NCBI GenBank assembly: GCA_041489925.1
Contig: JBGPSD010000001.1
Coordinates: forward strand, 4,930 to 68,929
Length of the DNA stretch: 64,000 bases
Source of the DNA: Candidatus Nanoarchaeia archaeon
Lineage (GTDB): Archaea; Nanobdellota; Nanobdellia; Woesearchaeales; ARS49
Direction: 5' to 3'
Part shown: positions 1-41,835 of the stretch, in pieces
Layout: every line of letters starts with the position of its first letter
How positions within the stretch are numbered: position 1 is the stretch's first letter
The notes under the pieces: generated by a model
Told to the model about the DNA's origin: nothing
What the model saw: the letters and a program-made list of their open reading frames with translations, nothing else
Databases searched by the model: none
Position numbers and translations under genes: made by a program

Positions 1-1195
<1,195 letters not shown>

Positions 1196-1279
1196 TTTAC
1201 TTTTTCGTTGATAAAAAGTAAAACTTCGAATTTGGTCGGTTGTTATGCTGCTCTCTTTTTATTTTCACAAGGACCGTTC

Positions 1280-1351
1280 GGGCCCGTAGCTCAACGGTAG
1301 AGCGCCCGCCTTGCACGCGGGAGGCTTCGGGTTCGAATCCCGACGGGTCCA
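1280..1351 (+). tRNA. tRNA-Ala (anticodon UGC) in the 16S-23S spacer
   Basis: GGGCCCG...CGGGTCC acceptor stem with G3:U70, anticodon loop CTTGCAC, T-arm GGGTTCGAATCCC, discriminator A; no encoded CCA. Confidence 0.95.
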
Positions 1352-1570
1352 TTTTTCGCAAGAAAAATGACCCCAGCTGAACCGAGTTCAGCGCGGGTCC
1401 ATCACAAATATCACATTCATACATCATATCATCGAATATGAACCGCGCGATTCAGAAGATCGCGCAGGTATGACGCAAATCGCAAACCAAACACTTGCGG
1501 TTGAAGGGCAATCAGGGTGTAGAAGTCCACTTAAGTGTGGACGAATTAGTACCACTTACACTACATGCTT

Positions 1571-1606
1571 ATGACGGCCGTGCAAAGATCGAGATATCTG
1601 GTCCAT
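1571..1606 (+). other. 5' strand of long-range 23S rRNA processing stem
   Basis: atgacggccgtgcaaagatcgagatat..gtcca is complementary to 4553-4590. Confidence 0.75.
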
Positions 1607-1649
1607 CACGAAGAGTAACATCTTCGTGAGCAGCAGAATAAGAATATTC

Positions 1650-4550
<2,901 letters not shown>

Positions 4551-4552
4551 CA

Positions 4553-4590
4553 TACCTGGACTATATATCTCGATTTTTGCACGGCTATCA
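4553..4590 (+). other. 3' strand of long-range 23S rRNA processing stem
   Basis: cctggactatatatctcgatttttgcacggctatca pairs with 1571-1606. Confidence 0.75.
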
Positions 4591-4629: not shown

Positions 4630-5256
4630 CTATCTGTTGTGGGGAAATGCTCCATCTTTATCCCGTTTGCTTTTTGAAACAGAGACAGTAATTCCTTTAT
4701 ATGGGCTGAAAAATGTGACTGGGTTTGTTTTGTATGAAATCTCTTTTCCTTGGATGAAGCTCCAGCCTCTATAAATTACGTTTTCTTTTTGATAGAGCTT
4801 TCCTTGTATGATTGAGTATTTGTACCTATGAACTTTTTTACATACTCCTGGTACTTTGCGATAGTCATCAACATAGAAATTATAAGTGTGCATGGTATTA
4901 AGGTAAGAGTTGCCTAATTTAAGGGGTATTTTTTTCTTTTTGAGGTAGTTTTTTACGTAATCTTTGTAAGCAAATTCTTCTGAATTAACATTTATGTCAA
5001 TTAAAAGATGTAGATTCTTTAGATAAACATCTGCAGTTCGGCATTTATATTCGTTTCTTGGAAATCTGTCAATTTTAAATCCTTGAACCATTAGTGGGTG
5101 GACAAGGCTTACCCGTATCTGGCGCACGTGGGACTTATCTTCTTCGAGCTTGATTATTTTCTCCAAAAATCCCAGCTGCTCAGGGCTTACTCCCACTGCA
5201 TTCAGGATTAACTTGGCGGCTCTTTCATATTTCCGCAGGTTGTATTTTTGCGTCAT
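4630..5256 (-). CDS. hypothetical protein, Lys/Tyr/Asn-rich, visibly AT-rich gene
   Basis: 208-aa ORF; start overlaps the upstream stop (ATGA at 5253-5256); no recognised motif. Confidence 0.6.
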   Translation of the reverse strand: MTQKYNLRKYERAAKLILNAVGVSPEQLGFLEKIIKLEEDKSHVRQIRVSLVHPLMVQGFKIDRFPRNEYKCRTADVYLKNLHLLIDINVNSEEFAYKDYVKNYLKKKKIPLKLGNSYLNTMHTYNFYVDDYRKVPGVCKKVHRYKYSIIQGKLYQKENVIYRGWSFIQGKEISYKTNPVTFFSPYKGITVSVSKSKRDKDGAFPHNR

Positions 5257-30646: not shown

Positions 30647-32890
30647 ATGGTACGCGCAGGACTCCAGAACATTCCGGTTCTTAATTCGTTGCCTGACATC
30701 CCCCAAATGTATGCCAGCAACCCGGGATTCAGCTTCTTTGTTGACCTCATACTCCTTTGCGGATTGTTCGCTGCGCTTCTCGCGCCTCTCGGCTCAATGA
30801 TTTTTGAAAGGGGCGAAGGCGGAGTGGGTGAAGGAAAGAAAGGCGCAGGCAGGAAGTTCGGCGCAATTCTCGGAATCATCCTCGGCGCATCTGCAGCGTT
30901 CGCACTGCGCGCAGCAGGAATAACCCTGTTCCAATACTGGCTGACAACAGTCGCATCTGCCGCCCTGCTTGGGGCAGTACTTTTCGTCATGCTGAAAAAG
31001 CTCCATGTTCCACCAATTGTCGCAGGGCTAATCTGCGCACTGCTGGCGTGGATGATTATGGACTCGTGGTTTGTGACATCAAACAGCGAGACAGTAAGGA
31101 ACCTGTTCGGCTTCCTCTCCCTTCTCGCGCCAATACTCATCTTTTTGTTCATAATCTGGATGTTTTTACCAAAGTTCAGAAGGGCGCCAGGACCAGAACC
31201 TGGACCCGGGCCTGAACCAGGACCAACCCCACCAGAACCTGGACCACCCGAGCCAGGACCAGAACCCGGACCGCCAGGACCTATTCCGCCAAACCCAGGA
31301 GAACGACTTGGACAGGATCTTAACAACATCAATGTGAATGTCAATACTGCAAGCAATGCCAGCAATCAGATTGATATCAGAAACGCAAACATCCTGCAGG
31401 CATTGAACCTTGCAATTGCAGACGCTGAGAATGCAATCAAGTCAGCAGAGCAGGGCGACTCCAAGAACACAGAAGCGCACATCACTGACCTTATTGTAAG
31501 GATTGAATCAATAATCAAGGCAATAAACGGCCAAAAGACATTTGTCACCAAGATAATGGGCCTGAAAGCAGCCATAGAAGCTATTCTCAAGAAGTATTAC
31601 AGCGAAATAAGGACCACAATGGTCCAGTACGGGCAGATGGTTGAAGCAATTGAGAGGGAAGTACAGACATTTGCAGGAAGGCCTGAGCAGGCAGAACTGC
31701 TTGTGAAGCTCGGGATACTGAAGCGCGACCTCCAAATCCTTGAGAATTCATTGAAGCAATTAAATGATATAATTTTGCGCCTTGAAAAGCACCTCCTTGT
31801 GCTTAAAGACGCACAGCTGCAGTCGCTTTACGATGATGCGATAAAGAGCATAAATGAAGTGGACATTAATGCCATGAAAAATTCAATCAGGGCGTTCATC
31901 AGAAAAGAGGGCGCTGCAAGAACGCCAGAGGAGGCAGAGGCGCTCCGCCGCGAAGTGATTCAACTGATTGAGTGGCTTGAAAACAAGCTGGGCCAGATAA
32001 CTGCCAAGTGCCAGGCATTCACTGCCGCATCCAAATTCAACACGGCGCAGGTCAAGGAAATCCAGGCAGAGATAAAGCACTGGAAAGAGATTTTCGAAGG
32101 GCTTGTCAAAAAGGCACTTGATGCTGTTGAAAGCGGCATTTTGGCATTGCAAGCTGCGATTAACGAGAGAAGAGCGGCAATCGCAGGAAGGGCCGCTGTG
32201 CCGCCTGTCCCACCGCCTGCAGCAAGGGCTCAAGCGCCTGCGCAAAGACCTGCCAGACGCGCGCCAGCCCCTGTCCAACCGCCTGCAGCAGCAGTTATTG
32301 TTCCTGAAATTGATGAGATAATGAGGAACATCGAAAAGCAAAGGCGCCTCCTCGCCAGCCTCGCAGCCCAGACACGCGAGGTTATCAACAGGATTATCTT
32401 TGCAGAATCAGTAAAGAGAAAGAGCGGCCAAAAGACAATAGACGCAAAATCAGAACAGGCATTTTTGGACGCGATACAAAAGGCTGTTGAAGAGGCAAGA
32501 TTTGATATTGATGCTGCGAGTGTTTCACAGAGAATAATCAATGAGATTCACACTGCAGCAGAGCATGTCCGCATAAGGATAATGATGCAAAACAGCCCTG
32601 CAGAATCAAGGACACTCAGGGAGCTGGAACAAAACCTCAAGACATTTGAGAAATACGAGCAAACAGCAGTCCTGCCTGTGCTTGTGAACCTGCAGGAAAC
32701 AATCAACAAGGAAGTTATTGAGACGCTCAGAAAGAAAAAGACAGTGATGGTGTCAGGCCAGATAATCACAGATGCAGTCAAAAACAAGCTTCTCAGGCTT
32801 GCAGACCAGCTTGATGCAGCCATCAATGCGCTTGCAGGAATAACTGTGCTAAGAAGGCCTATGCCGCCCGTGCGACCGGCGCAAATTTAA
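30647..32890 (+). CDS. large protein with five predicted N-terminal TM helices, PGPE-repeat linker and ~560-aa helical/coiled-coil region
   Basis: 747-aa ORF; 5 hydrophobic helices in the first 180 aa; PGPEPGPGPEPGPTPPEPGPPEPGPEPGPPGP; heptad-like helical sequence; internal Ala/Pro-rich linker. Confidence 0.8.
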   Translation: MVRAGLQNIPVLNSLPDIPQMYASNPGFSFFVDLILLCGLFAALLAPLGSMIFERGEGGVGEGKKGAGRKFGAILGIILGASAAFALRAAGITLFQYWLTTVASAALLGAVLFVMLKKLHVPPIVAGLICALLAWMIMDSWFVTSNSETVRNLFGFLSLLAPILIFLFIIWMFLPKFRRAPGPEPGPGPEPGPTPPEPGPPEPGPEPGPPGPIPPNPGERLGQDLNNINVNVNTASNASNQIDIRNANILQALNLAIADAENAIKSAEQGDSKNTEAHITDLIVRIESIIKAINGQKTFVTKIMGLKAAIEAILKKYYSEIRTTMVQYGQMVEAIEREVQTFAGRPEQAELLVKLGILKRDLQILENSLKQLNDIILRLEKHLLVLKDAQLQSLYDDAIKSINEVDINAMKNSIRAFIRKEGAARTPEEAEALRREVIQLIEWLENKLGQITAKCQAFTAASKFNTAQVKEIQAEIKHWKEIFEGLVKKALDAVESGILALQAAINERRAAIAGRAAVPPVPPPAARAQAPAQRPARRAPAPVQPPAAAVIVPEIDEIMRNIEKQRRLLASLAAQTREVINRIIFAESVKRKSGQKTIDAKSEQAFLDAIQKAVEEARFDIDAASVSQRIINEIHTAAEHVRIRIMMQNSPAESRTLRELEQNLKTFEKYEQTAVLPVLVNLQETINKEVIETLRKKKTVMVSGQIITDAVKNKLLRLADQLDAAINALAGITVLRRPMPPVRPAQI

Positions 32891-35800
32891 TCTCCCCTTT
32901 GCAATAATCCATCCAGTCTTTTCTCGAAGCACTCTTTGGCGCCAGCTTAAACTCGCTTAGTGCTTCCTCAAACTTATCCTCATCGTGTGTTTCGCTTGCA
33001 ATCAATGCAAGGCACATTCCAATATTGAAAGAGCAGTTCTGCTTTGCAGCATCAAATGGAACACCCTCGCGCGCCACCCTGTAGTTCCTGCACGCATACT
33101 GAAGCTTCCTGATTTTTGCATTGCCAGAAAGCCCTGTCGAAGCATACAGCGCTTTGTCTGCGTAGTCTGCTATTGAGCGTGCTGAGTTGTAATCATCGTG
33201 CAGCCTTGAAATCCTGTTCTCAAGCTCATCCTTGTCATTTTCAATGGCGCGGATTTGGTCCCACAATGAGGCAACATAGCCCAATGGCAGCCCTGACTGG
33301 AGCTCGCAAAGCAGGGCGTATTCCTTTGGATTGTTCTTCGCAAATGACGTCCTGCCAAGATACATCCTGCTTACCGCGACAAGTGTCCTGAGCTCGCGGT
33401 TCGCTCGCGTATTCACCAGTTCGCATGCATTACTGCCGATAACCTCCTTCAGGTTGTTGATGCGCGTTGCATAACCGCCGCCGTGCAGCATCGCATCATA
33501 AGCTTCAAGCAATGGCTCCTTGAAATTATCATAAGCCTTGTTTTTCTCAATTCTTGCCCGCATGCCTTTCAGCACTTTTTCAAAGCGCGCTCCTTTCGGG
33601 ATATTGACCCTTGGCGCCTTTACAGGATGGTCTGATGCCCAGTTGCGCACAATCGCGACAAGGTCGTCAGGCGCAGCTGCATTCCTGCGAATGCGCAATA
33701 TTTCATTTGCTTTCTTTTGCAATTCCTGCTCATTCTTCCCAATCTGGAGGCGATAACCCTTTTCCATTGCGTTGCGCTCAGCGTCCTTCCTTATGAGCGC
33801 AGCAGCGTGTGACTTGTCCTTTTCTGCAAGGGCTTTTGCGTGCGCTTCCTGCAACTTTTTGCTATTTGCAGCCAAAGCATTATCTGCTTTCTCCAGCTTC
33901 TGTTCAAGCTCAGTCACTTTTGCAGCAAGCTCAGTGTCTGGCTCTCCTTTTTCTTCCCTTGCGCGCTTAAGGTCTGCTTCATACTGCTTGCGCGCATCGC
34001 CCAGCTGTTTTTCAAAGTCTGTGCGCTGTTTACCAAGCTCTTTGCCATGGTCTTCGCGCATAGATTTCAACCGTTCTTCAAGATCAGTGCGATCCTCCAC
34101 AGCCTTGCCATACTTTTGTTCTGAGGTTTGGCGCCTCTGTTCGAGTGCAGCATATTCCCTTACTTTTGCAGCAAGCTGTTCATCATAGCCCTTTCGCACT
34201 TCTGTAAGCTGGAGTTCAGCTGCACTCTGGACTTGCCCAATCCTTGTTTGGGCTGTCGCATAATCGCCTTTCAGTTTGTTGTTTTCTTGTTCAAGAGCCG
34301 CACGCTGTGCTTCAATTTCTGCAATACGCTTCTCAATTTCACCTGCTCCTGGCTCATCGCCTGCCTTCAGCGCCTTAGTTTTGAATTCTACCAGTACTTT
34401 CATGGGGTCTGTTTCAACCAGTTTGTTCCCAAACCTTGTTTTCAGATAGGGAGCAACAGATTCAATGATTTTCGTAACTGCGCCAAACATTTTGTCTGCA
34501 CGCCGTATATCCTGCGTTTGGGTTTCCAACTGAGATTTGTAGCCGTCAATTTCCTTTTGTTTGGCAGCGATTTCGGTATCATACGTCTGTTTGTCAGTGT
34601 CGCGCGCCTGCCTTAGCTTGGATGCGTCTGGCTGGCCTTTTCGCAGTCCCTCAAGTTCTTTGTTTGCGGTTTCAAGGCGTTGTTCAAGCTGAGTGTATGC
34701 TGCTTCTTTTCTTTCAATATTGCGCTGCAGGTTCAATGCTTTTTCTTTTTCCTTGTCGCGCTCTTCGCGTGCGCTATCAACATCATCATTACGGGAATTC
34801 AATTGCGTGACTTGCTCGCTGGTGAGCCTCTCAATTTCTGCATCATGTTCCTTTTTGTCAGCTTCGCGCTCCTTTCTTTGCCCTTCCTGCATTTCCGCAG
34901 CAGACTGTTCATATGCAAGACGCTGCCGCTCAAACGCTTCGTACTGCTGCTTCAACTTATCATCAGATTCGGGTTTAAACTCGCCGCTTTGGACAAGCCC
35001 TGCAACCTGTTCCAGTATATCGCGGGGATTTTCAGCCTGAATTCTGCCGCCGCATATTGCCTTCAGGCGCTTGGCAAGAGGCTCAACTGCCTGCTCATAG
35101 AGCGATTGCATTGATTCAAACTCCTGATTTTTAGCACCAATTTGCTGCTCGAGCTCGCTGATCCTTGCCTTTGAAGAAAGCCCCTCCTGCGCCTTGGTCC
35201 TCAACTCATCAATAGTTGCGCCCAGACCAGTGAACCATTTCAAGTATCCAAGGACCCTCTCAACAGGCTTTTTTCCTTTGAATTCGGGATGTTTCTCAGT
35301 CACATACCCATCAAGATCCTTGACAAGAGTAAAAACATCAACGTGATCCATCAGGTAGGCATCTGCGTCATCTGCATCCTTCTTTGCAACTGCAACTCTT
35401 TCAGTGGCCCACCGCTTTACTTTTCCAATAATCCTCATTGACCTGCTTACAATCGCTTCATTCTCAGATTCAAGCTGCTCCTCTATTTTTTCAGCGGCAG
35501 CCAGTTGCACTTCAAGTTCCTGAATCTTTGCTTCAAGTGCCAAAGGCCTTGTTCCCTGCGCGTCTTTAGGCGGTTCTTCAGCAGGCGAGGAATGGGATGA
35601 GTCTGATGTACTGCCCGGAATTGGGGGAGGAGCGTCTGCATCTGGCGGATGGATGGGAATGCGCGCACCGCTGAAAATCTGTGTCTGTTCTGTAGCAGGG
35701 TTCTCATGAAGCTTGAAGTCATGTTTTGTTTCCTTCCGGAACTCATCTGTCTCAGGATGCCAGACAAACTGCAAGTGCGAACCTGCCCTGCCGTCAAAAA

Positions 35801-36668
35801 CATAAACGCCTACCGGCGAGTGCGGAAACTTGTGGGCAACTTCGTCAAAAATCTTGCTTGGTCTGTACTCTGAATCGCGCGTCTCAATTTCACTCTGCCC
35901 AACTGGATTTTTCTGCCCAGCGATAATCATGTAATATACGCCGTCGATAAGTTTTTCCTTTGGAAGAATTCTTGAATTGCATATAATCACGCCTGACTCC
36001 TTTCTGTCCGAAGAGAACGTGCTTTGCAGTTGTTCATCTTCATCGATTGATTTTCCGCTGCGGTAAGCGAGCAGCGGCGCGTCTGCTGCCGCTGTGATTT
36101 CATCAAGCCCTGATGCTGATAAAACAACCCCCTTCAGCTCAATTCTTTGCCAGTCGAGATAGCTGTCTGATGGAAGCGCCTCTATGTGGAAGATATTGGT
36201 TCCCATTACCTTGACTTTTATTTCCTCGCTCCTTGCAGGCATCATTGCCTTTCCAAGGTCGCGGTAGAATTCCCTGAACCTCGGGACAAGAATCCCTTCC
36301 ACAGGGATGCCTCCTGCCTCAACAGCGCCGACATACTTCCTGAAAGGCACGCTGGCAGGATTGCCGCCAGGGTCAACTGCGCGAAGGCTGCCAAGGTCTG
36401 CAGGGTTCATTATTCCTTTCTTGCTCCATTCATTTGCGTGGACATTAAACTCGTCACAAAGCAATGCCCATGCGCCTTCATCAAATTCCTTGAGCTCTGC
36501 AGGGCTCATTTGCGAGCCAGGCGTGTTTCCTATAAGCGCGATTAAGTCCAGTTTTTTGTCTGTTTCCTTGCTGACTGCCTGCGGAAGCTTTGAGAAAAGA
36601 TTCCTGAGAAAATCAATGTCTCCATTCGCATCATTCACTACCGCAAACACTGCAGGCGCTGTCATCAC
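32859..36668 (-). CDS. giant coiled-coil protein with degenerate metallophosphoesterase-like N-domain and helical C-domain
   Basis: 1269-aa uninterrupted ORF; ~650 aa of charged E/K/Q/A/L-rich heptad-like sequence; no signal peptide or TM seen. Confidence 0.85.
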   Translation of the reverse strand: MMTAPAVFAVVNDANGDIDFLRNLFSKLPQAVSKETDKKLDLIALIGNTPGSQMSPAELKEFDEGAWALLCDEFNVHANEWSKKGIMNPADLGSLRAVDPGGNPASVPFRKYVGAVEAGGIPVEGILVPRFREFYRDLGKAMMPARSEEIKVKVMGTNIFHIEALPSDSYLDWQRIELKGVVLSASGLDEITAAADAPLLAYRSGKSIDEDEQLQSTFSSDRKESGVIICNSRILPKEKLIDGVYYMIIAGQKNPVGQSEIETRDSEYRPSKIFDEVAHKFPHSPVGVYVFDGRAGSHLQFVWHPETDEFRKETKHDFKLHENPATEQTQIFSGARIPIHPPDADAPPPIPGSTSDSSHSSPAEEPPKDAQGTRPLALEAKIQELEVQLAAAEKIEEQLESENEAIVSRSMRIIGKVKRWATERVAVAKKDADDADAYLMDHVDVFTLVKDLDGYVTEKHPEFKGKKPVERVLGYLKWFTGLGATIDELRTKAQEGLSSKARISELEQQIGAKNQEFESMQSLYEQAVEPLAKRLKAICGGRIQAENPRDILEQVAGLVQSGEFKPESDDKLKQQYEAFERQRLAYEQSAAEMQEGQRKEREADKKEHDAEIERLTSEQVTQLNSRNDDVDSAREERDKEKEKALNLQRNIERKEAAYTQLEQRLETANKELEGLRKGQPDASKLRQARDTDKQTYDTEIAAKQKEIDGYKSQLETQTQDIRRADKMFGAVTKIIESVAPYLKTRFGNKLVETDPMKVLVEFKTKALKAGDEPGAGEIEKRIAEIEAQRAALEQENNKLKGDYATAQTRIGQVQSAAELQLTEVRKGYDEQLAAKVREYAALEQRRQTSEQKYGKAVEDRTDLEERLKSMREDHGKELGKQRTDFEKQLGDARKQYEADLKRAREEKGEPDTELAAKVTELEQKLEKADNALAANSKKLQEAHAKALAEKDKSHAAALIRKDAERNAMEKGYRLQIGKNEQELQKKANEILRIRRNAAAPDDLVAIVRNWASDHPVKAPRVNIPKGARFEKVLKGMRARIEKNKAYDNFKEPLLEAYDAMLHGGGYATRINNLKEVIGSNACELVNTRANRELRTLVAVSRMYLGRTSFAKNNPKEYALLCELQSGLPLGYVASLWDQIRAIENDKDELENRISRLHDDYNSARSIADYADKALYASTGLSGNAKIRKLQYACRNYRVAREGVPFDAAKQNCSFNIGMCLALIASETHDEDKFEEALSEFKLAPKSASRKDWMDYCKGEIKFAPVARAA

Positions 36669-36756: not shown

Positions 36757-37500
36757 ATGCAGAAAAAAGAGGCTCACGGTCCGCACCCTTTGCACGCTGA
36801 GCTCGTGCTCACAAAGAAGCCAAAGGGAGCGACTGTAATTGAAGGGTTCCCTGGGCTTGGCCTTGTTGGAACAATAGCAACAGGTTTTCTGCTTGACCAT
36901 CTGAAGTGCGAGAAAATCGGCAGCTACTACTTTGAAGACCCGCCTGCCACGCTCGCTGTGCACGGCGACAAGATAGTTGACCCGATTGGCATTTACTACA
37001 ACAAGGAATACAACCTCGTGATTGTCCACGCGATAACATCTGCGCAGGGATTGGAATTCCACGCAGCAGACTTGATACTCACCCTGTGCAAGCAGATTGA
37101 TGCAGCAGAGGTTATCACGCTTGAAGGGGTTGGCAGCTCTGAAACTGAGGAAACCCGCGGGTTCTTCTACACAGACCATCCCCAGCTCAAGAGCACAATG
37201 GAAAAAATGGGAGTTGACTGCCTTGGCGAAGGAATCATAATGGGCGTGACAGCTGCAATACTGCTGCGCAACCAGCTTCCAATACTCTCATTATTCGCTG
37301 AAACACACTCAAAACTGCCTGACAGCAAGGCAGCTGCGAAAATCATTGAAATTCTCGACAAAATACTGGGATTAAAGGTGAATTACGCGCCTTTATTGAA
37401 GCAGGCAGAGGAGTTTGAAAAGAAGCTCAAAGGCATGCTCAGCCAGACCATGAAAGCCCAGGAACTAAAGGAACAAAAGCAGGTTGGATACATAGGATAG
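36757..37500 (+). CDS. PAC2-family proteasome assembly chaperone (PbaB-like)
   Basis: VIEGFPGLGLVGTIATGFLLDHL signature; ~245 aa. Confidence 0.75.
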   Translation: MQKKEAHGPHPLHAELVLTKKPKGATVIEGFPGLGLVGTIATGFLLDHLKCEKIGSYYFEDPPATLAVHGDKIVDPIGIYYNKEYNLVIVHAITSAQGLEFHAADLILTLCKQIDAAEVITLEGVGSSETEETRGFFYTDHPQLKSTMEKMGVDCLGEGIIMGVTAAILLRNQLPILSLFAETHSKLPDSKAAAKIIEILDKILGLKVNYAPLLKQAEEFEKKLKGMLSQTMKAQELKEQKQVGYIG

Positions 37501-38399
37501 GCATTCTCTCACTTTCGTTCTCTAACCCTGTCACTTCTTGATGTTTTAATGCCCAATTTTTCTAGTGCCTAAGTGCTTTTTGGCTCTTGAGTCGGGGTCT
37601 TGGCTGATTCTGGCCTGGTGCTCTTGGGATGTTGCTGGAAGTTAGGCACTTTGCGTTTGCTCATGCTTTCTTTCTAACCCTCACTTTTGTTTAGGGGTGG
37701 TTTTTATTTTCCTTATTTAGAAAAATATAGACGAAAATATACTTTTGCTAATATTCTTTGTAAGACAACTTTTGTTAAAGATGTTTTGTAAAAGAATATT
37801 CTGTGAAACAATTTTCCTGATTTCTATTTTATGCCACAACTGTCACTTTAGATAAGTAATTGTTCTGCTCTCCGTCGGTAAAATAGCGAAAAAGAGCAAC
37901 CGATTTAAAATGAATTTTTTGCAAAAACCATTTTTGACCAAATCAAGGGTTTTGAAAGGTTTTTGAGGCACTCAAACTTGTCAGGGAAAATGCCAGAATT
38001 ACTCATAGTCGGGCCTCGAAGTGCATCTTTTGGTGTAGAACCCCGGGTATGCAGCAGGTCGACCTTGACCTTATTCGTCGGGAAAATCAAGAAAAGTCCG
38101 CGTTTTTGCCGACTCCGACTGGGTTTTTGCTGAAACCACAATTTTGTGCACATCTGGAATGGGGATGGTAGGTGGTTTTAGTCGGGATTTTTAGCTAATC
38201 TGGGGTTTGATGGCTCAAAAATGCATTGAAGTACCGTATTCTGAGCCATTTTGAGAAAAAAGTCTGCTCTAAAGCGGTTTAAACGCGAAAACGGCTAAAT
38301 TCTGGCGTTTTGGCGACAGTTTCAATCATCTTTTGTCGGGTTTTCACTGGACACTGGTCGGGATTACGCAAGGCTTTTTAACGAGAAGGTCTAAACGCT
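37501..38399. other. 0.9 kb apparently non-coding region with AT-rich core and oriented GTCGGG motifs
   Basis: No credible ORF on either strand; GTCGGG at 37591, 38008, 38077, 38181, 38335 and 38357, all on the + strand. Confidence 0.6.
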
Positions 38400-38405
38400 T
38401 TGAAA

Positions 38406-38924
38406 ATGAAGATTCAACTCGAACATTCAGAGGCGCCTGAACAGGCAGTTCCCGAGGATATCGCAAAGACCATTCTGGCCCGCTTTGGGCTTTTGCCGAG
38501 GAAAAAAGACGGCAGTGCCCAGATGCACAAGCTCCTTCTCGAGCTATCAGAGCGCAAGAAGGCTGCCAATAGGGAGAAAAAGCCTGAGCTGGCAGTGATG
38601 CCCGTTGAGGATATGGGCTCTTTCGCAGGCATAAAGCGCCAGACAATGTACGAGTATTTGCACCGCTGGCTTGACCTGAATATCCTCAAGAAAACCAGCT
38701 TTGTGAACAATGGAAAAGTTGTCATCGGTTATGAGCTGAACGGCACAAACCTGGAAGGGGCGTTCAGAAAGGCAGAATCGACGATAAAAACCCATTTGGA
38801 TGGCTCTTTCAAGCTTATCGAACAGCTCCAAAGCGAGATAAAGAAGGAAAAGCTCAGGGCTGGGGCTTCTGAACAGCCTGAGGAGCCTGCATCCAGTGTG
38901 ACAACAGAGAATTTAGGCCAATAA
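38406..38924 (+). CDS. wHTH DNA-binding protein, hypothetical
   Basis: VEDMGSFAGIKRQTMYEYLHRWLDLNILKK helix-turn-helix-like; coiled-coil C-terminus. Confidence 0.5.
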   Translation: MKIQLEHSEAPEQAVPEDIAKTILARFGLLPRKKDGSAQMHKLLLELSERKKAANREKKPELAVMPVEDMGSFAGIKRQTMYEYLHRWLDLNILKKTSFVNNGKVVIGYELNGTNLEGAFRKAESTIKTHLDGSFKLIEQLQSEIKKEKLRAGASEQPEEPASSVTTENLGQ

Positions 38925-39423
38925 CAACTTCTTTTGCCTGTTTCTGCCTGAATTTGGGCTCCAATTGCACAAATGCCTGCCCTTCGTCATACTTTTTCAG
39001 GATTGGGACCCCTTTCTCGACGAGGTTTGTGATAACGCCTGAAATAAGCGTGTCAGAGATATTGAGCTTCCTGGCAAGCTGTTTGTAGCTGACAAAAGGG
39101 ATGCCCTCTCCGACGATATAAAGCGCCTGGAAGACCTCCTGTTCGCGCTTTGTTAAAGGCTGGATTTCGATTTTTTGCTCTGCTTTTTTGCCCTCGACAA
39201 GAAGGAAAAGCTCCTCTATGCGGGCGTGAAGCTTGTCGAGCTTTTCCTCGACAGAATGGATGTATTCGTGGTTTGCCTGGAGCTCGTTTGTGTTCTCGTT
39301 AATCGCTGCCCTGTGGTCGTCGAGCTCCTCCCTGAATGCGTCGAAAATTGAGTTCATGGCAAGCTCTGCGCCTGCCTCGTCCCTGTGTACTAACACTGCT
39401 TGTTTTGACTTCAAACTTTCCAC
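38854..39423 (-). CDS. coiled-coil plus C-terminal HTH protein
   Basis: LTKREQEVFQALY...SYKQLARKLNISDTLISGVITNLVEKGV; GTG start at 39423 or ATG at 39357. Confidence 0.55.
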   Translation of the reverse strand: MESLKSKQAVLVHRDEAGAELAMNSIFDAFREELDDHRAAINENTNELQANHEYIHSVEEKLDKLHARIEELFLLVEGKKAEQKIEIQPLTKREQEVFQALYIVGEGIPFVSYKQLARKLNISDTLISGVITNLVEKGVPILKKYDEGQAFVQLEPKFRQKQAKEVVIGLNSLLSHWMQAPQAVQKPQP

Positions 39424-39491: not shown

Positions 39492-40202
39492 CTATCTTCC
39501 AACAGCCTTTTTCAGGTGGCCTCCGACCATAAGCAGTTTTTCCTTTCCTTCGTGAATAACTCCTATTGCAGACTCATCCTCAAGCTCCTCTAGGAGCCTG
39601 TAGAAGCTGCTCTTGCTGGCAAGGCCCTGCTCCTCGACGAGCATCTCCCTGAGCTGCAGCGCCGATATCTTGCCGTATTTCGTGATCATGCTCATGATAA
39701 GCCCCTTCAGGTATTCCTTCGAGTTCCTGGTTATCCGCTGGACAATCTTGTCCCTCAAAGCCTGTGTTCTCGACGGTGGAGGGGCAATGTGAGGTAATGC
39801 CTCGACTTCGTGCCTTATCTGCTGAACGGCTGGAGCTGCCTTCTGGTGCTCCAAATGGCGCAATTTGTCCTCTATTTGTCTCATACGCTCTACCATGGTG
39901 TCGAAATCGTAATACGCGTCAATAATGCGCTTTATTGTCTCAGAATCCTTTGGAACATCCCTTAATTCCGTTTGCATCCTCTCGATAAGCTGCTTCTGCC
40001 TGACGATTTCCTGCTCGTAGTCGTCGAGGTCGTGCTGCTGCTCCTCTATGAGCTGGTTTTGGCGGGCTGTCTGCTGCTGGAAATAAGCAAGCCATTGGTA
40101 TATCGCGTTCGTGTCCTGCTTGACATGCGCAAAGCTGTCCTTTAAAGCGCGGTCAAGCTGCGCGACCTTGTCGTCAACCTCTTTTCCGAAAAGCCACCCC
40201 AT
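39492..40202 (-). CDS. coiled-coil plus C-terminal wHTH protein
   Basis: ATG 40202 lies 23 nt downstream of tttttata (leaderless); C-terminal ISALQLREMLVEEQGLASKSSFYRLLEELEDESAI. Confidence 0.6.
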   Translation of the reverse strand: MGWLFGKEVDDKVAQLDRALKDSFAHVKQDTNAIYQWLAYFQQQTARQNQLIEEQQHDLDDYEQEIVRQKQLIERMQTELRDVPKDSETIKRIIDAYYDFDTMVERMRQIEDKLRHLEHQKAAPAVQQIRHEVEALPHIAPPPSRTQALRDKIVQRITRNSKEYLKGLIMSMITKYGKISALQLREMLVEEQGLASKSSFYRLLEELEDESAIGVIHEGKEKLLMVGGHLKKAVGR

Positions 40203-40269
40203 GGCAAAGTGAAAACGAGGGCAGGTATAAAAAGTTTTCCAATACCCTATTTTGTCCTCTTTTCTGCTG

Positions 40270-40725
40270 TTTTTGGGACGGTCCCAGGACCTTCCCATGA
40301 CGTTCCCAGGACTGTTTTGGGACTATCAGCTGCCTTTTGGGAACGTTTTATCGTCGGTAAAACGTCATTCCCACATTCCCACTTGGGACTATCTGGGAAT
40401 GAGCTGAGACGGAGGCGGGAATATCCTGGGAATGAGTGGGAATGATATGGGAATATCCATCGTCGGAAGGGCATTACCTCCTGGGACTATCTGGGAATGA
40501 GAATGAAGTATTGGGAATGAAGCAATACGGATACGGGACTGCTGCGAAAAAGTTTGGGAATGGGAACGAGATTGGGAACGTTCCCAGCTGGGACTATCTG
40601 GGAATGAGAATGGGACTGGGAACGTCGACAATGAGCACATTGTCGAGCGTGCTCGCCAACTCCGTTGGCGACATGATATTGGGACAGTCCCAGTGGGAAC
40701 GAGAGTGGGAATGACTGGGAATGAG
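40270..40725. repeat. dense strand-biased array of GGGAAT/GGGAAC/GGGACT motifs with three perfect 20-bp direct repeats
   Basis: tgggactatctgggaatgag at 40384, 40482 and 40589; CTGGGAATGAG at 40393, 40426, 40491, 40598 and 40714; about 24 GGGA(A/C) on + and about 8 inverted. Confidence 0.9.
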
Positions 40726-41142
40726 GCAGTGGTGCCATATAATATAGTGCGACAAGAATGTCATATGTCATAGCAGGGCAGGTCTAACCATTGCCAAGCC
40801 TAGGGCAGGAGGGGAGCAGAACAGGCCTTCAGGAAGGTTTACTGGTGCCTAATGCTGGTGCCTAAGAACCAATAAAACACATGGTGCCTATGTGCTTCAA
40901 AGTGAGGCTTTCTGAAGGGCAAAGGAGGGTCAAAAAGGGTAACCTTGTGAGTGAAAAGTGAGAGTTCAGAAAGGGTTTTGGATAGGTTAGGCACCATCTA
41001 AAACTAGTGCTTTTGGCCAAAAGTGAGCAATTCGGGATAGCAAAAGGGTTAAATATAGGGGTTCTATTCATCAAAAGTGAGGCGATGCCAAACAGCGTTC
41101 GGCAAGCCATCAAAATGCAAGCATTTTGAGGCGAATGAGTAT

Positions 41143-41835
41143 ATGATGAACCCAAACGACAATCCTTGGTTTTACGCACCAGAACTGCCCCAGACGGGCG
41201 AAATAGTGCTTGACCCAGAAGAAGTTAGGCACCTGAAGGCTCAAAGGCTAAAAACAAAGGATAAAGTGAGCTTGTTCAATGGCAAGGGCACAGTGGCTAT
41301 AGCAGAGCTGATGGAAGAGGGCAAGGCAAGGCTTCTGGAAAGCCATGAAGTTGCCAAAAGCGAGTTTTCCCTTGCAATAGCAGTTGCAGTGCCAAAAGGA
41401 GACCGCGCTGACTGGATGCTCCAAAAGCTCACAGAACTCGGCGTATCTACGATAATCCCCATTAAAACAGAGCATTCTGTAGTGCTTCCACGCGAGGCAA
41501 AGCAGGAGCGCTGGCAAAGAATCCTGATAGAGGCCTGCAAGCAAAGCAAGCAGGCCTGGATACCTGAACTTAAACCCTTATCGACGATAGAAGAGGCTCT
41601 GAAGCAGGACGCAAAACTGAAGCTTCTGCTTGACCAGGAAGGCAAGCCAATACTTGAAGCTCTTCAGGAAAAGCCAAAGAGCGCCATTGCCTTTATCGGG
41701 CCAGAAGGGGGCTTTACCGACGGGGAAAAGGCAATCCTGAATAAGGCAGGCTGTATTCCTGCCTCATTAGGAAAGCAGGTTCTAAGGATTGAAACCGCAG
41801 CAATGACAATAGCTGCACTGGTCAATATTCTCTAG
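41143..41835 (+). CDS. rsmE: 16S rRNA (uracil1498-N3)-methyltransferase RsmE-like (SPOUT)
   Basis: PUA-like N-domain; AVPKGDRADWMLQKLTELGV; RWQRILIEACKQS; LGKQVLRIETAA. Confidence 0.75.
   Translation: MMNPNDNPWFYAPELPQTGEIVLDPEEVRHLKAQRLKTKDKVSLFNGKGTVAIAELMEEGKARLLESHEVAKSEFSLAIAVAVPKGDRADWMLQKLTELGVSTIIPIKTEHSVVLPREAKQERWQRILIEACKQSKQAWIPELKPLSTIEEALKQDAKLKLLLDQEGKPILEALQEKPKSAIAFIGPEGGFTDGEKAILNKAGCIPASLGKQVLRIETAAMTIAALVNIL

Follow-up and report, generated by a model that had tools for sequence, protein, structure and literature searches.

The subject of this analysis is a dense array of short TGGGA(A/C) boxes in the chromosome of an archaeon of the order Woesearchaeales. The array lies in a stretch of 64,000 nucleotides, referred to below as the window, which corresponds to positions 4,930 to 68,929 of contig JBGPSD010000001.1 in assembly GCA_041489925.1 (Candidatus Nanoarchaeia archaeon); genes for 16S rRNA, tRNA-Ala and 23S rRNA at 1-4565 mark it as part of an archaeal chromosome, which protein homologues assign to Woesearchaeota / Nanoarchaeota (DPANN). 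The array occupies positions 40274..40725, with boxes on both strands, inside an intergenic region of ~940 bp. This region is flanked by two divergent genes, one for a winged-helix protein that we call wH1 on the minus strand and rsmE, encoding a 16S rRNA methyltransferase, on the plus strand (41144..41835). The local order is PAC2, ~900 bp of non-coding DNA (37500-38400), p174 (+), wH2 (-), wH1 (-), the array and rsmE (+). We observe that the boxes are phased with the DNA helix, that the array keeps its place upstream of the wH1-wH2 operon throughout the order, and that it evolves by gain and loss of whole units while the boxes themselves are conserved.

Between 40274 and 40720 there are 29 TGGGA/TCCCA boxes, 22 of them on the plus strand and 7 on the minus strand, the rest of the window averaging 0.40 boxes per 460 bp (Poisson P ~2e-43). 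The next-richest 500-bp intervals of the 64-kb window hold at most three boxes each, and a second cluster is absent. The longer pattern TGGGAMT is matched 32 times in the window, and 18 of these matches fall inside the array; shuffles gave 14.4 matches on average and 24 at most. The units are ~11 bp long and take forms such as TGGGAATGAGn, TGGGACTATCn and GGACnGTCCCA (single units are TGGGAATGAGT, TGGGACTATCT and TGGGACGGTCCCA), and Tandem Repeats Finder reports a period of 10-11 bp in several sub-stretches. The guanine-plus-cytosine (GC) content of the array is 0.51, that of the window 0.475.

A first-pass annotation of the sequence had described the same interval as a strand-biased motif array and possible replication origin, and most of its description of the repeats holds. 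By exact search the 20-bp word TGGGACTATCTGGGAATGAG is confined to three sites of the window, 40384, 40482 and 40589, and its last two copies remain identical over 24-25 bp. Four of the five reported copies of CTGGGAATGAG start where they had been placed (40393, 40426, 40491 and 40598), the fifth at 40715 instead of 40714; likewise, between 40270 and 40730 the plus strand does carry 24 GGGA[AC] words, the inverted copies numbering 7 rather than about 8. Both the perfect palindrome TGGGAACGTTCCCA (40573-40586) and the dyad GGGAC-A-GTCCC (40681-40691) are present, and another dyad, TGGGAC-G-GTCCCA, lies at 40274-40286. Dyads occur in the array because its unit is itself a quasi-palindrome, GGGAC-N-GTCCC. 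The units of ~11 bp, their mixed orientation, the irregular gaps and the restriction of tandem periodicity to short sub-stretches agree with the earlier statement that this is neither a satellite, which would have homogeneous tandem units, nor a CRISPR array, whose regular repeats of 24-40 bp alternate with unique spacers of similar size.

How is the array maintained in related genomes? A scan of one genome per species, made with a pattern built from the recognition helix of wH1, yielded 171 confirmed loci, of which 80 were retained. For the 69 species loci with sufficient upstream sequence (loci of 4-20 kb) we located the densest 500-bp interval of TGGGA[AC]/[GT]TCCCA boxes. In 67 of them this interval immediately precedes the wH1 homologue; on its own it holds a median of 51% of all boxes in a locus of ~16 kb. 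The linkage extends over wH1 identities down to ~36% and over GC contents from 0.29 to 0.55. What faces wH1 across the array varies: 47 loci have a METTL5-like methyltransferase gene there, 7 have rsmE, and 19 have RpoL or a different gene. The array is linked to wH1 whichever gene faces it, and therefore belongs with the wH1-wH2 operon. The comparison of the interval from PAC2 to rsmE among relatives, suggested in the first-pass annotation, gives the same picture at close range: in three close relatives found by exact protein look-up the gene order and the intergenic sizes are the same, and each has many TGGGA(A/C) boxes. Compared with the flanks, the regions upstream of wH1 show a 434-fold enrichment of the 8-mer TGGGACTA and an 88-fold enrichment of TGGGAATG.

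Successive boxes on the same strand, taken over the 80 loci, are most often 11 bp apart (231 cases), then 10 bp (78), 22 bp (51) and 33 bp (32), followed by 44/45 and 55 bp. There is thus one box per helical turn, and the gaps are whole turns. The arrays comprise 8-30 phased units. When the window is aligned with seven close relatives, the differences include insertion and deletion (indel) of exact 11-bp units; the half of the array nearer the promoter keeps its layout, and the distal half is subject to turnover. Box columns of this alignment are 63% identical and spacer columns 46%, the spacers being poorly conserved much as first described, and the unit indels would break any reading frame, so that the open reading frames (ORFs) called across the array are indeed not coding. 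Low-GC lineages have shorter arrays with degenerate TRRGA boxes (TGAGA/TAAGA), and the 11-bp register is kept. In five lineages (L018, L039, L059, L078 and L079) the units, as GAC[CA]GTCCCA, stand on the opposite strand, while the adjacent AAAGTGAG boxes, considered below, retain their orientation; such flips to the other strand fit recognition at the DNA level. The helical phasing, the position before the same operon and the higher conservation of the boxes bear out the original impression of iterons or clustered binding sites.

Several parts of the array can be told apart. In the promoter-proximal sub-array (40274..40312), whose position is kept in close relatives, GGACnTTCCCA units (3.4 copies at period 11) come after the TGGGAC-G-GTCCCA dyad. 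A conserved sub-module on the plus strand (40343..40400) begins with a palindromic ACGTTTTATCGTCGGTAAAACGT box, continues with two inverted ATTCCCA boxes and ends with TGGGACTATCTGGGAATGAG; its words ATCGACGA/GACGATAA are enriched 39-83x. The TGAGACGG box (40405..40412, plus strand) is kept within the array in many relatives. Outside the conserved array stands a window-specific insert (40624..40671) of two hairpins, GTCGACAATG...CATTGTCGAG and TCGCCAAC...GTTGGCGA. Lineage-specific inserts of this kind, perfect hairpins of ~50 bp in conserved non-coding DNA, are also seen upstream of wH1 in L003 and upstream of p174 in L004, and may be small mobile hairpin elements. Beyond the array, between it and the next motif set, lies the TATA-box-like element CATATAATATAGTGCGAC (40736..40753), which is kept in the closer relatives. 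A second, isolated copy of the sub-module is found beyond the methyltransferase gene in three loci, at ~1215-1275 (L028), ~1405-1460 (L046) and ~1210-1260 (L069) upstream of wH1 in window orientation, with the layout ATTCCCA, ATTCCCA, TGGGA.., TGGGAAT and a GTCGACGA-type box. From its sequence this copy hints at one or more further targets of the same putative binding protein. One exact match to TGGGACTATCTGGGAAT was encountered in IMG/VR, at 408-424 of L084 (IMGVR_UViG_3300035158_000369), directly before a 112-aa ORF. The contig is that of a genuine tailed phage, with terminase- and portal-like ORFs adjoining the 112-aa ORF, and a lone match is about what chance would give for a 17-mer in that collection.

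The gene next to the array, wH1 (39492..40205, minus strand), has 237 codons including the stop and encodes a long N-terminal helix or coiled coil and a C-terminal winged helix-turn-helix (HTH). Its start is the ATG at 40205, and all homologues open with MGW[LI]FGK. The public gene model P0001 (268 aa, 39492-40298, minus strand) over-extends wH1 by 31 codons into the array. The recognition helix SKSSFYR is invariant across 33 diverse homologues. An AlphaFold2 model of wH1, with a mean predicted local distance difference test (pLDDT) score of 80.6 that rises to ~90 over residues 160-230, comprises an N-terminal helix of 78 residues, two more helices and the C-terminal winged helix-turn-helix. 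Foldseek returned only generic DNA-binding winged helices for this model (Hop2, Fur, ArsR/SmtB, MarR, AspA and TubR, E 0.003-0.07), and sequence searches of Pfam, NCBIfam and the PDB gave no family or relative. A profile search finds 566 cluster representatives at E<=0.001, of which 224 lie at E<=1e-30. Upstream of the gene, on the minus strand, the putative TATA box of the wH1-wH2 operon, TTTTTATA, is situated at 40226..40233, ~20 nt from the ATG; its counterpart GGTATAAAAAGTTTT is conserved in relatives, and the edge of the array follows ~40 bp further upstream.

The second gene, wH2 (38854..39423, minus strand), encodes 189 aa with a coiled coil and a C-terminal LuxR/GerE-like HTH (LTKREQEVF...). 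It is less conserved and lies directly downstream of wH1 in 80/80 loci. It fits no Pfam family, sequence searches returned coiled-coil noise, and no similarity between wH1 and wH2 is detectable. Convergent with wH2 is p174 (38400..38924, plus strand), a winged-helix protein with a long C-terminal helix that is 65-93% identical over 412 homologues and has no match in Pfam, NCBIfam or PDB sequence searches. Foldseek matches p174 weakly to TFE-alpha/TFIIE, the replication terminator protein RTP and the Lrs14-type AbfR2. The single-copy core markers of Nanobdellota given in a recent preprint include a winged-HTH regulator of uncharacterised function, which may or may not be one of these three proteins. 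Further from the array the window holds two very large ORFs, at 32859-36668 (minus strand, 1269 aa) and 30647-32890 (plus strand, 747 aa), neither of which matches Pfam; the 1269-aa ORF is kept beside PAC2 in the closest relative (L004, 85% identity).

The box array is not the only motif set of this cluster. A second set on the plus strand (40844..41270) contains five AAAGTGAG(AGTT) boxes, accompanied by GGTGCCTAA/TTAGGCACC boxes; one of the five is within rsmE itself and another where the rsmE transcript region begins. Over the 80 loci AAAGTGAG occurs 297 times in the wH1-upstream regions and 43 times in 1.36 Mb of flanks, at ~4 per locus and in a single orientation, and some copies lie in the coding sequence of the neighbour, in differing frames. 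A mirrored AAAGTGAG/GTGCCTAA module is present at 37508-37690, and the two modules bracket the three-gene cluster. The latter module is part of the conserved non-coding region of ~900 bp upstream of p174 (37500..38400), which also includes an AT-rich stretch (37690-37900) and GTCGGGA(T) repeats (37591, 37874, 38008, 38077, 38181, 38335 and 38357) and has no match in Rfam. Upstream of p174 the GTCGGGA word is 131-fold enriched and occurs in 27/31 loci.

The AAAGTGAG box nearest the divergent methyltransferase gene ends 7-8 nt before its ATG in 24 of ~41 loci, a position that implies overlap with the transcription start or a short leader. This box follows a TATA element by ~21 nt (window 41049-41081; also L023, L045, L058, L063 and others). 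A reading as a Shine-Dalgarno sequence was rejected: the 3' end of the 16S rRNA is the ordinary GGATCACCTCCT, which offers a weak GUGA match at best. Judged by its placement, the box is more likely an operator at +1.

What could occupy the TGGGA(A/C) array? The phasing, the whole-unit indels, the strand flips and the conservation of the boxes together point to a protein that binds side by side on one face of duplex DNA. Our preferred explanation, which we hold with a probability of roughly 0.55, is that wH1 and/or wH2 use the array as a conserved nucleoprotein platform or iteron-like operator. Which protein binds, like the transcriptional or architectural nature of its output, is what we infer from these data, and sequence comparison makes wH1 the more likely loader; it is the preferred candidate because its recognition helix is invariant, like the GGGA core. 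We suppose that each turn of the helix would offer wH1 and/or wH2 one TGGGA(A/C) unit to load on; loading would be head to tail along the direct repeats, and dimers would sit on the promoter-proximal GGGAC-N-GTCCC dyads. The long N-terminal helix of wH1 could join neighbouring molecules, giving rise to a cooperative nucleoprotein filament. Placed between two divergent promoters, such a filament would tune its own operon and probably also the divergent rRNA-methyltransferase gene, in an architecture that might work like that of ParR on parC, TubR on tubC or the omega repressor on its heptads. The cluster offers a parallel to this arrangement, in the pattern that each gene appears with its own operator array, GTCGGGA repeats in the case of p174.

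Some considerations weigh against this explanation. Nothing in the sequences ties TGGGA to wH1 over wH2, p174 or an unlinked protein. An invariant recognition helix yields no covariation as evidence, and the loci were moreover fetched with a pattern derived from that very helix. The structural matches of wH1 are generic at E 0.003-0.07, and the protein fits no sequence family. Finally, 20-30 sites in 450 bp far exceed the needs of simple autoregulation, especially at high coding density, and this excess hints at a structural role beyond transcription.

Such a structural role is the core of the first alternative, in which the array would be a chromosome-maintenance element, either centromere-like, or nucleoid-organising, or a site for an Orc1-independent initiator in the manner of WhiP at Sulfolobus oriC3, and the three winged-helix genes with their mirrored flanking modules would form one unit. 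We regard this as rather unlikely, though plausible. The very large number of phased units (8-30) is kept throughout an order of streamlined genomes, the AAAGTGAG/GTGCCTAA modules are mirrored on both sides of the three-gene cluster, and an AT-rich stretch of ~200 bp (GC 0.29) adjoins the left one. The layout recalls the parC, tubC and omega centromeres, which lie upstream of their own operons (PMC3130281); AspA and TubR figure among the Foldseek matches of wH1 and RTP among those of p174; WhiP itself provides the precedent of a winged-helix initiator (PMC3607249). These structural matches are, however, weak and generic. A ParA/MinD-type ATPase (KGGxGK[ST]) is encoded neither in the window nor within 10 kb in the 80 loci, no ParM/TubZ-like or Rep-like gene was found in the cluster, and neither skew nor gene orientation switches at the locus. 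The AAAGTGAG box 7-8 nt before the ATG of the neighbour, moreover, looks like ordinary promoter or leader regulation. A more specific version, that of a dedicated DPANN chromosome-maintenance locus composed of wH1, wH2 and p174 with a phased array for each transcription unit and bracketed by the mirrored modules, strikes us as distinctly improbable. Were it true, the locus might serve as the centromere or nucleoid-organising centre of an archaeal chromosome, or might pair an Orc1-independent initiator with its origin, and a large protein filament would have the TGGGA array as its DNA scaffold.

The interpretation put forward in the first-pass annotation was that of a replication origin, with the repeats as a cluster of origin recognition boxes (ORB) or mini-ORBs bound by Orc1/Cdc6 at a primary or secondary chromosomal origin. 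It has an evident appeal. The half-site TGGGAA(C) is one base off the ORB half-site TGGAAAC, archaeal origins with arrays of several mini-ORB copies have been described (PMC1904270), and the site noted at the start, GTCCCAGTGGGAACGAGAGTGGG (40687..40709, plus strand), is the best in the window, scoring 17/23 against the archaeal consensus ORB CTTCCAGTGGAAACGAAAGGGGT in the form in which PMC4153887 quotes it from Pelve et al. The resemblance does not survive closer inspection. A match of 17/23 or better appears in 16% of shuffled windows, and the site is missing from 80/80 relatives (best score 15/23, median 13), including L004, whose wH1 is 100% identical; it adjoins the window-specific hairpin insert. 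The Pyrococcus mini-ORB is TTCCAGTGGAACT, with the core TTCC/GAA (PMC1904270). Allowing up to two mismatches, the mini-ORB TTCCAGTGGAAAC matches three times where 1.95 matches are expected, and no set of several elements matching either the dyad TTCCAGTGGAAAC plus G-string or the mini-ORB was found in the array, most of whose units are direct repeats devoid of an ORB dyad. The ORB-like site is, on this sequence evidence, best regarded as a chance juxtaposition of array units. Separately, a near match to the mini-ORB 13-mer (two mismatches), GTCCAGTGAAAAC, is seen on the minus strand at 38340-38352, inside the invariant block TTTCACTGGACACTGGTCGGGATTACGCAAGG ~50 bp upstream of p174; such matches are at chance level in the window.

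The surroundings speak against an origin as well. Origins of this type usually, though not always, have an orc1/cdc6 gene beside them. The earlier suggestion to look for orc1/cdc6 copies led to none nearby: no Pfam match to Orc1/Cdc6 occurs among 40 ORFs of the window, which include most ORFs of more than 200 aa, and neither the window nor the DNA up to 10 kb from the locus in the 80 species contains an ORF of 320-520 aa with an N-terminal Orc1-type Walker A motif. Nanobdellota encode ORC1/Cdc6 elsewhere in the genome. The array contains no AT-rich unwinding element of the kind that inverted ORBs flank, the sole AT-rich stretch (37690-37900, GC 0.29) being 2.4 kb off in the other intergenic region. 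Skew analysis, also proposed at first, reveals no switch at the locus. The raw cumulative GC skew of the window does form a V with its minimum near 37 kb; the orientation-corrected skew term, however, has the same sign on either side (+0.021 and +0.045), and the V-shape therefore reflects gene orientation. Across the locus in 37 relatives the raw GC skew differs by a mean of 0.010 (right minus left; 18/37 positive, p 0.43), and in 33 relatives neither GC and AT skew at four-fold sites nor gene orientation changes there. The orientation-corrected two-term model had sufficient data in 7 loci and is not decisive; composition thus lends the origin no support, with the reservation that these genomes may carry no replication skew at all. 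We consider an Orc1/ORB origin at this locus quite improbable. The call was attractive but is most likely wrong, its ORB-like site an apparent accident of neighbouring repeats.

Could the boxes act in RNA? The repeats would then be UGGGAAU elements of a long 5' leader or of a non-coding RNA such as a protein sponge. Strand bias of the boxes is strong in most lineages, with counts such as 0-3 versus 10-22, and both strands of the array fold better than shuffles (z ~-6). Yet spacing by 10-11 bp and its multiples is a property of duplex DNA, several lineages carry the units on the other strand, and the equal z on both strands simply mirrors the inverted copies of the box. No Rfam match was obtained at the gathering threshold or at E<=10. 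The TATA box of wH1, standing between the array and the gene, also places the array outside any leader that starts at the proximal promoter, and we think a role in RNA very improbable. The idea of a functionless, slippage-prone expansion of tandem repeats is hardly credible: units are gained and lost, and the distal half of the array turns over fast among close relatives, but the same box keeps its phase and its position upstream of the same operon in 67/69 species, and the boxes outlast their spacers.

Three further candidates were rejected. An integrated mobile element, as the mirrored flanking motifs might suggest, is at odds with an interval that is syntenic as a whole and conserved across the order; G-quadruplexes would lose their GGG runs in low-GC relatives, where the boxes become TGAGA/TAAGA; and a plasmid origin of the Rep-iteron type would have units of 17-22 bp rather than ~11, beside a rep gene and AT-rich DNA, and no Rep-like domain is found in wH1, wH2 or p174, the locus being moreover chromosomal and syntenic and the lone viral match of the 17-mer at chance level.

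The array is thus a phased iteron-like binding array, notable for its size, its conservation throughout an order of reduced genomes and its link to proteins that belong to no family. We found nothing relevant in the literature on origins of Woesearchaeota and DPANN archaea, and no description of the locus or of its protein families. DPANN archaea have tiny, dense genomes, and we know of almost no regulators or chromosome-biology factors that have been characterised experimentally in them. Here 0.4-1 kb of non-coding DNA is kept in nearly every Woesearchaeales species examined. The analysis also defines a concrete protein-DNA pair, wH1 or wH2 with the TGGGA(A/C)T units. An array that serves as an autoregulatory operator only would be uncommonly elaborate for that purpose; an architectural one, as a centromere, an organiser or an initiator site, would open the chromosome biology of a phylum in which no counterpart is known.

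Which known systems does the array resemble? WhiP at Sulfolobus oriC3 is reportedly a winged-helix protein encoded beside the DNA element that it specifies, independently of Orc1. Similarity of wH1, wH2 or p174 to Cdt1/WhiP was not detected, and the present data hold no evidence of initiation. Among archaeal regulators, Ss-LrpB binds regularly spaced boxes in its own control region. AspA (PDB 5k5q) spreads from a site upstream of aspA-parBA on the plasmid pNOB8. Both share with the present locus the location of the sites upstream of the protein's own promoter, palindromic boxes with cooperative, phased occupation, and a winged-helix reader. They make use of one to three boxes or a single nucleation site, whereas here there are 8-30 phased units, and they have no sequence relationship to the proteins described here.

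The ORB and mini-ORB clusters of Sulfolobus, Pyrococcus and Methanothermobacter likewise consist of many short targets of winged-helix proteins, with TTCC/GGAA-like cores and some dyads, and the ORB half-site TGGAAAC is similar to TGGGAAC of the array (PMC1904270; PMC4153887). The match to their consensus is at chance level, however, and the units of the array are mostly 11-bp direct repeats. Unlike those clusters, the array is accompanied by no adjacent orc1/cdc6, AT-rich unwinding element or switch in composition.

The closest likeness in layout is to the plasmid partition sites of ParR-parC, TubR-tubC and the omega repressor. There, too, short iterated boxes about one helical turn apart (here with peaks at 11, 10, 22 and 33 bp) lie directly upstream of an operon for a small DNA-binding protein (here wH1-wH2, in 67/69 loci). 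The parC site of plasmid R1 is made of 11-bp iterons and tubC of 12-bp repeats. Repeats of 20 bp are described for pSK41, and the omega heptads of pSM19035 occur in direct and inverted orientation (PMC3130281). Binding in these systems, by small dimeric ribbon-helix-helix (RHH) or winged-helix proteins, is cooperative, builds a superstructure and autoregulates the operon, and TubR is a winged-helix protein that recurs among the structural matches of wH1. The present array differs in being chromosomal, order-wide and single-copy, in being longer (up to ~30 units) and interspersed with other conserved boxes, and in the protein wH1, which has a long N-terminal coiled coil and stands outside the known families. 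Its operon, furthermore, consists of wH1 and wH2 only, with no partner nucleoside triphosphatase (ParM, ParA or TubZ) found there or within 10 kb; for this reason, and because the locus is chromosomal and syntenic, we do not class the locus as a par system. To judge by this analogy, the array probably works like a par site in the way it binds protein.

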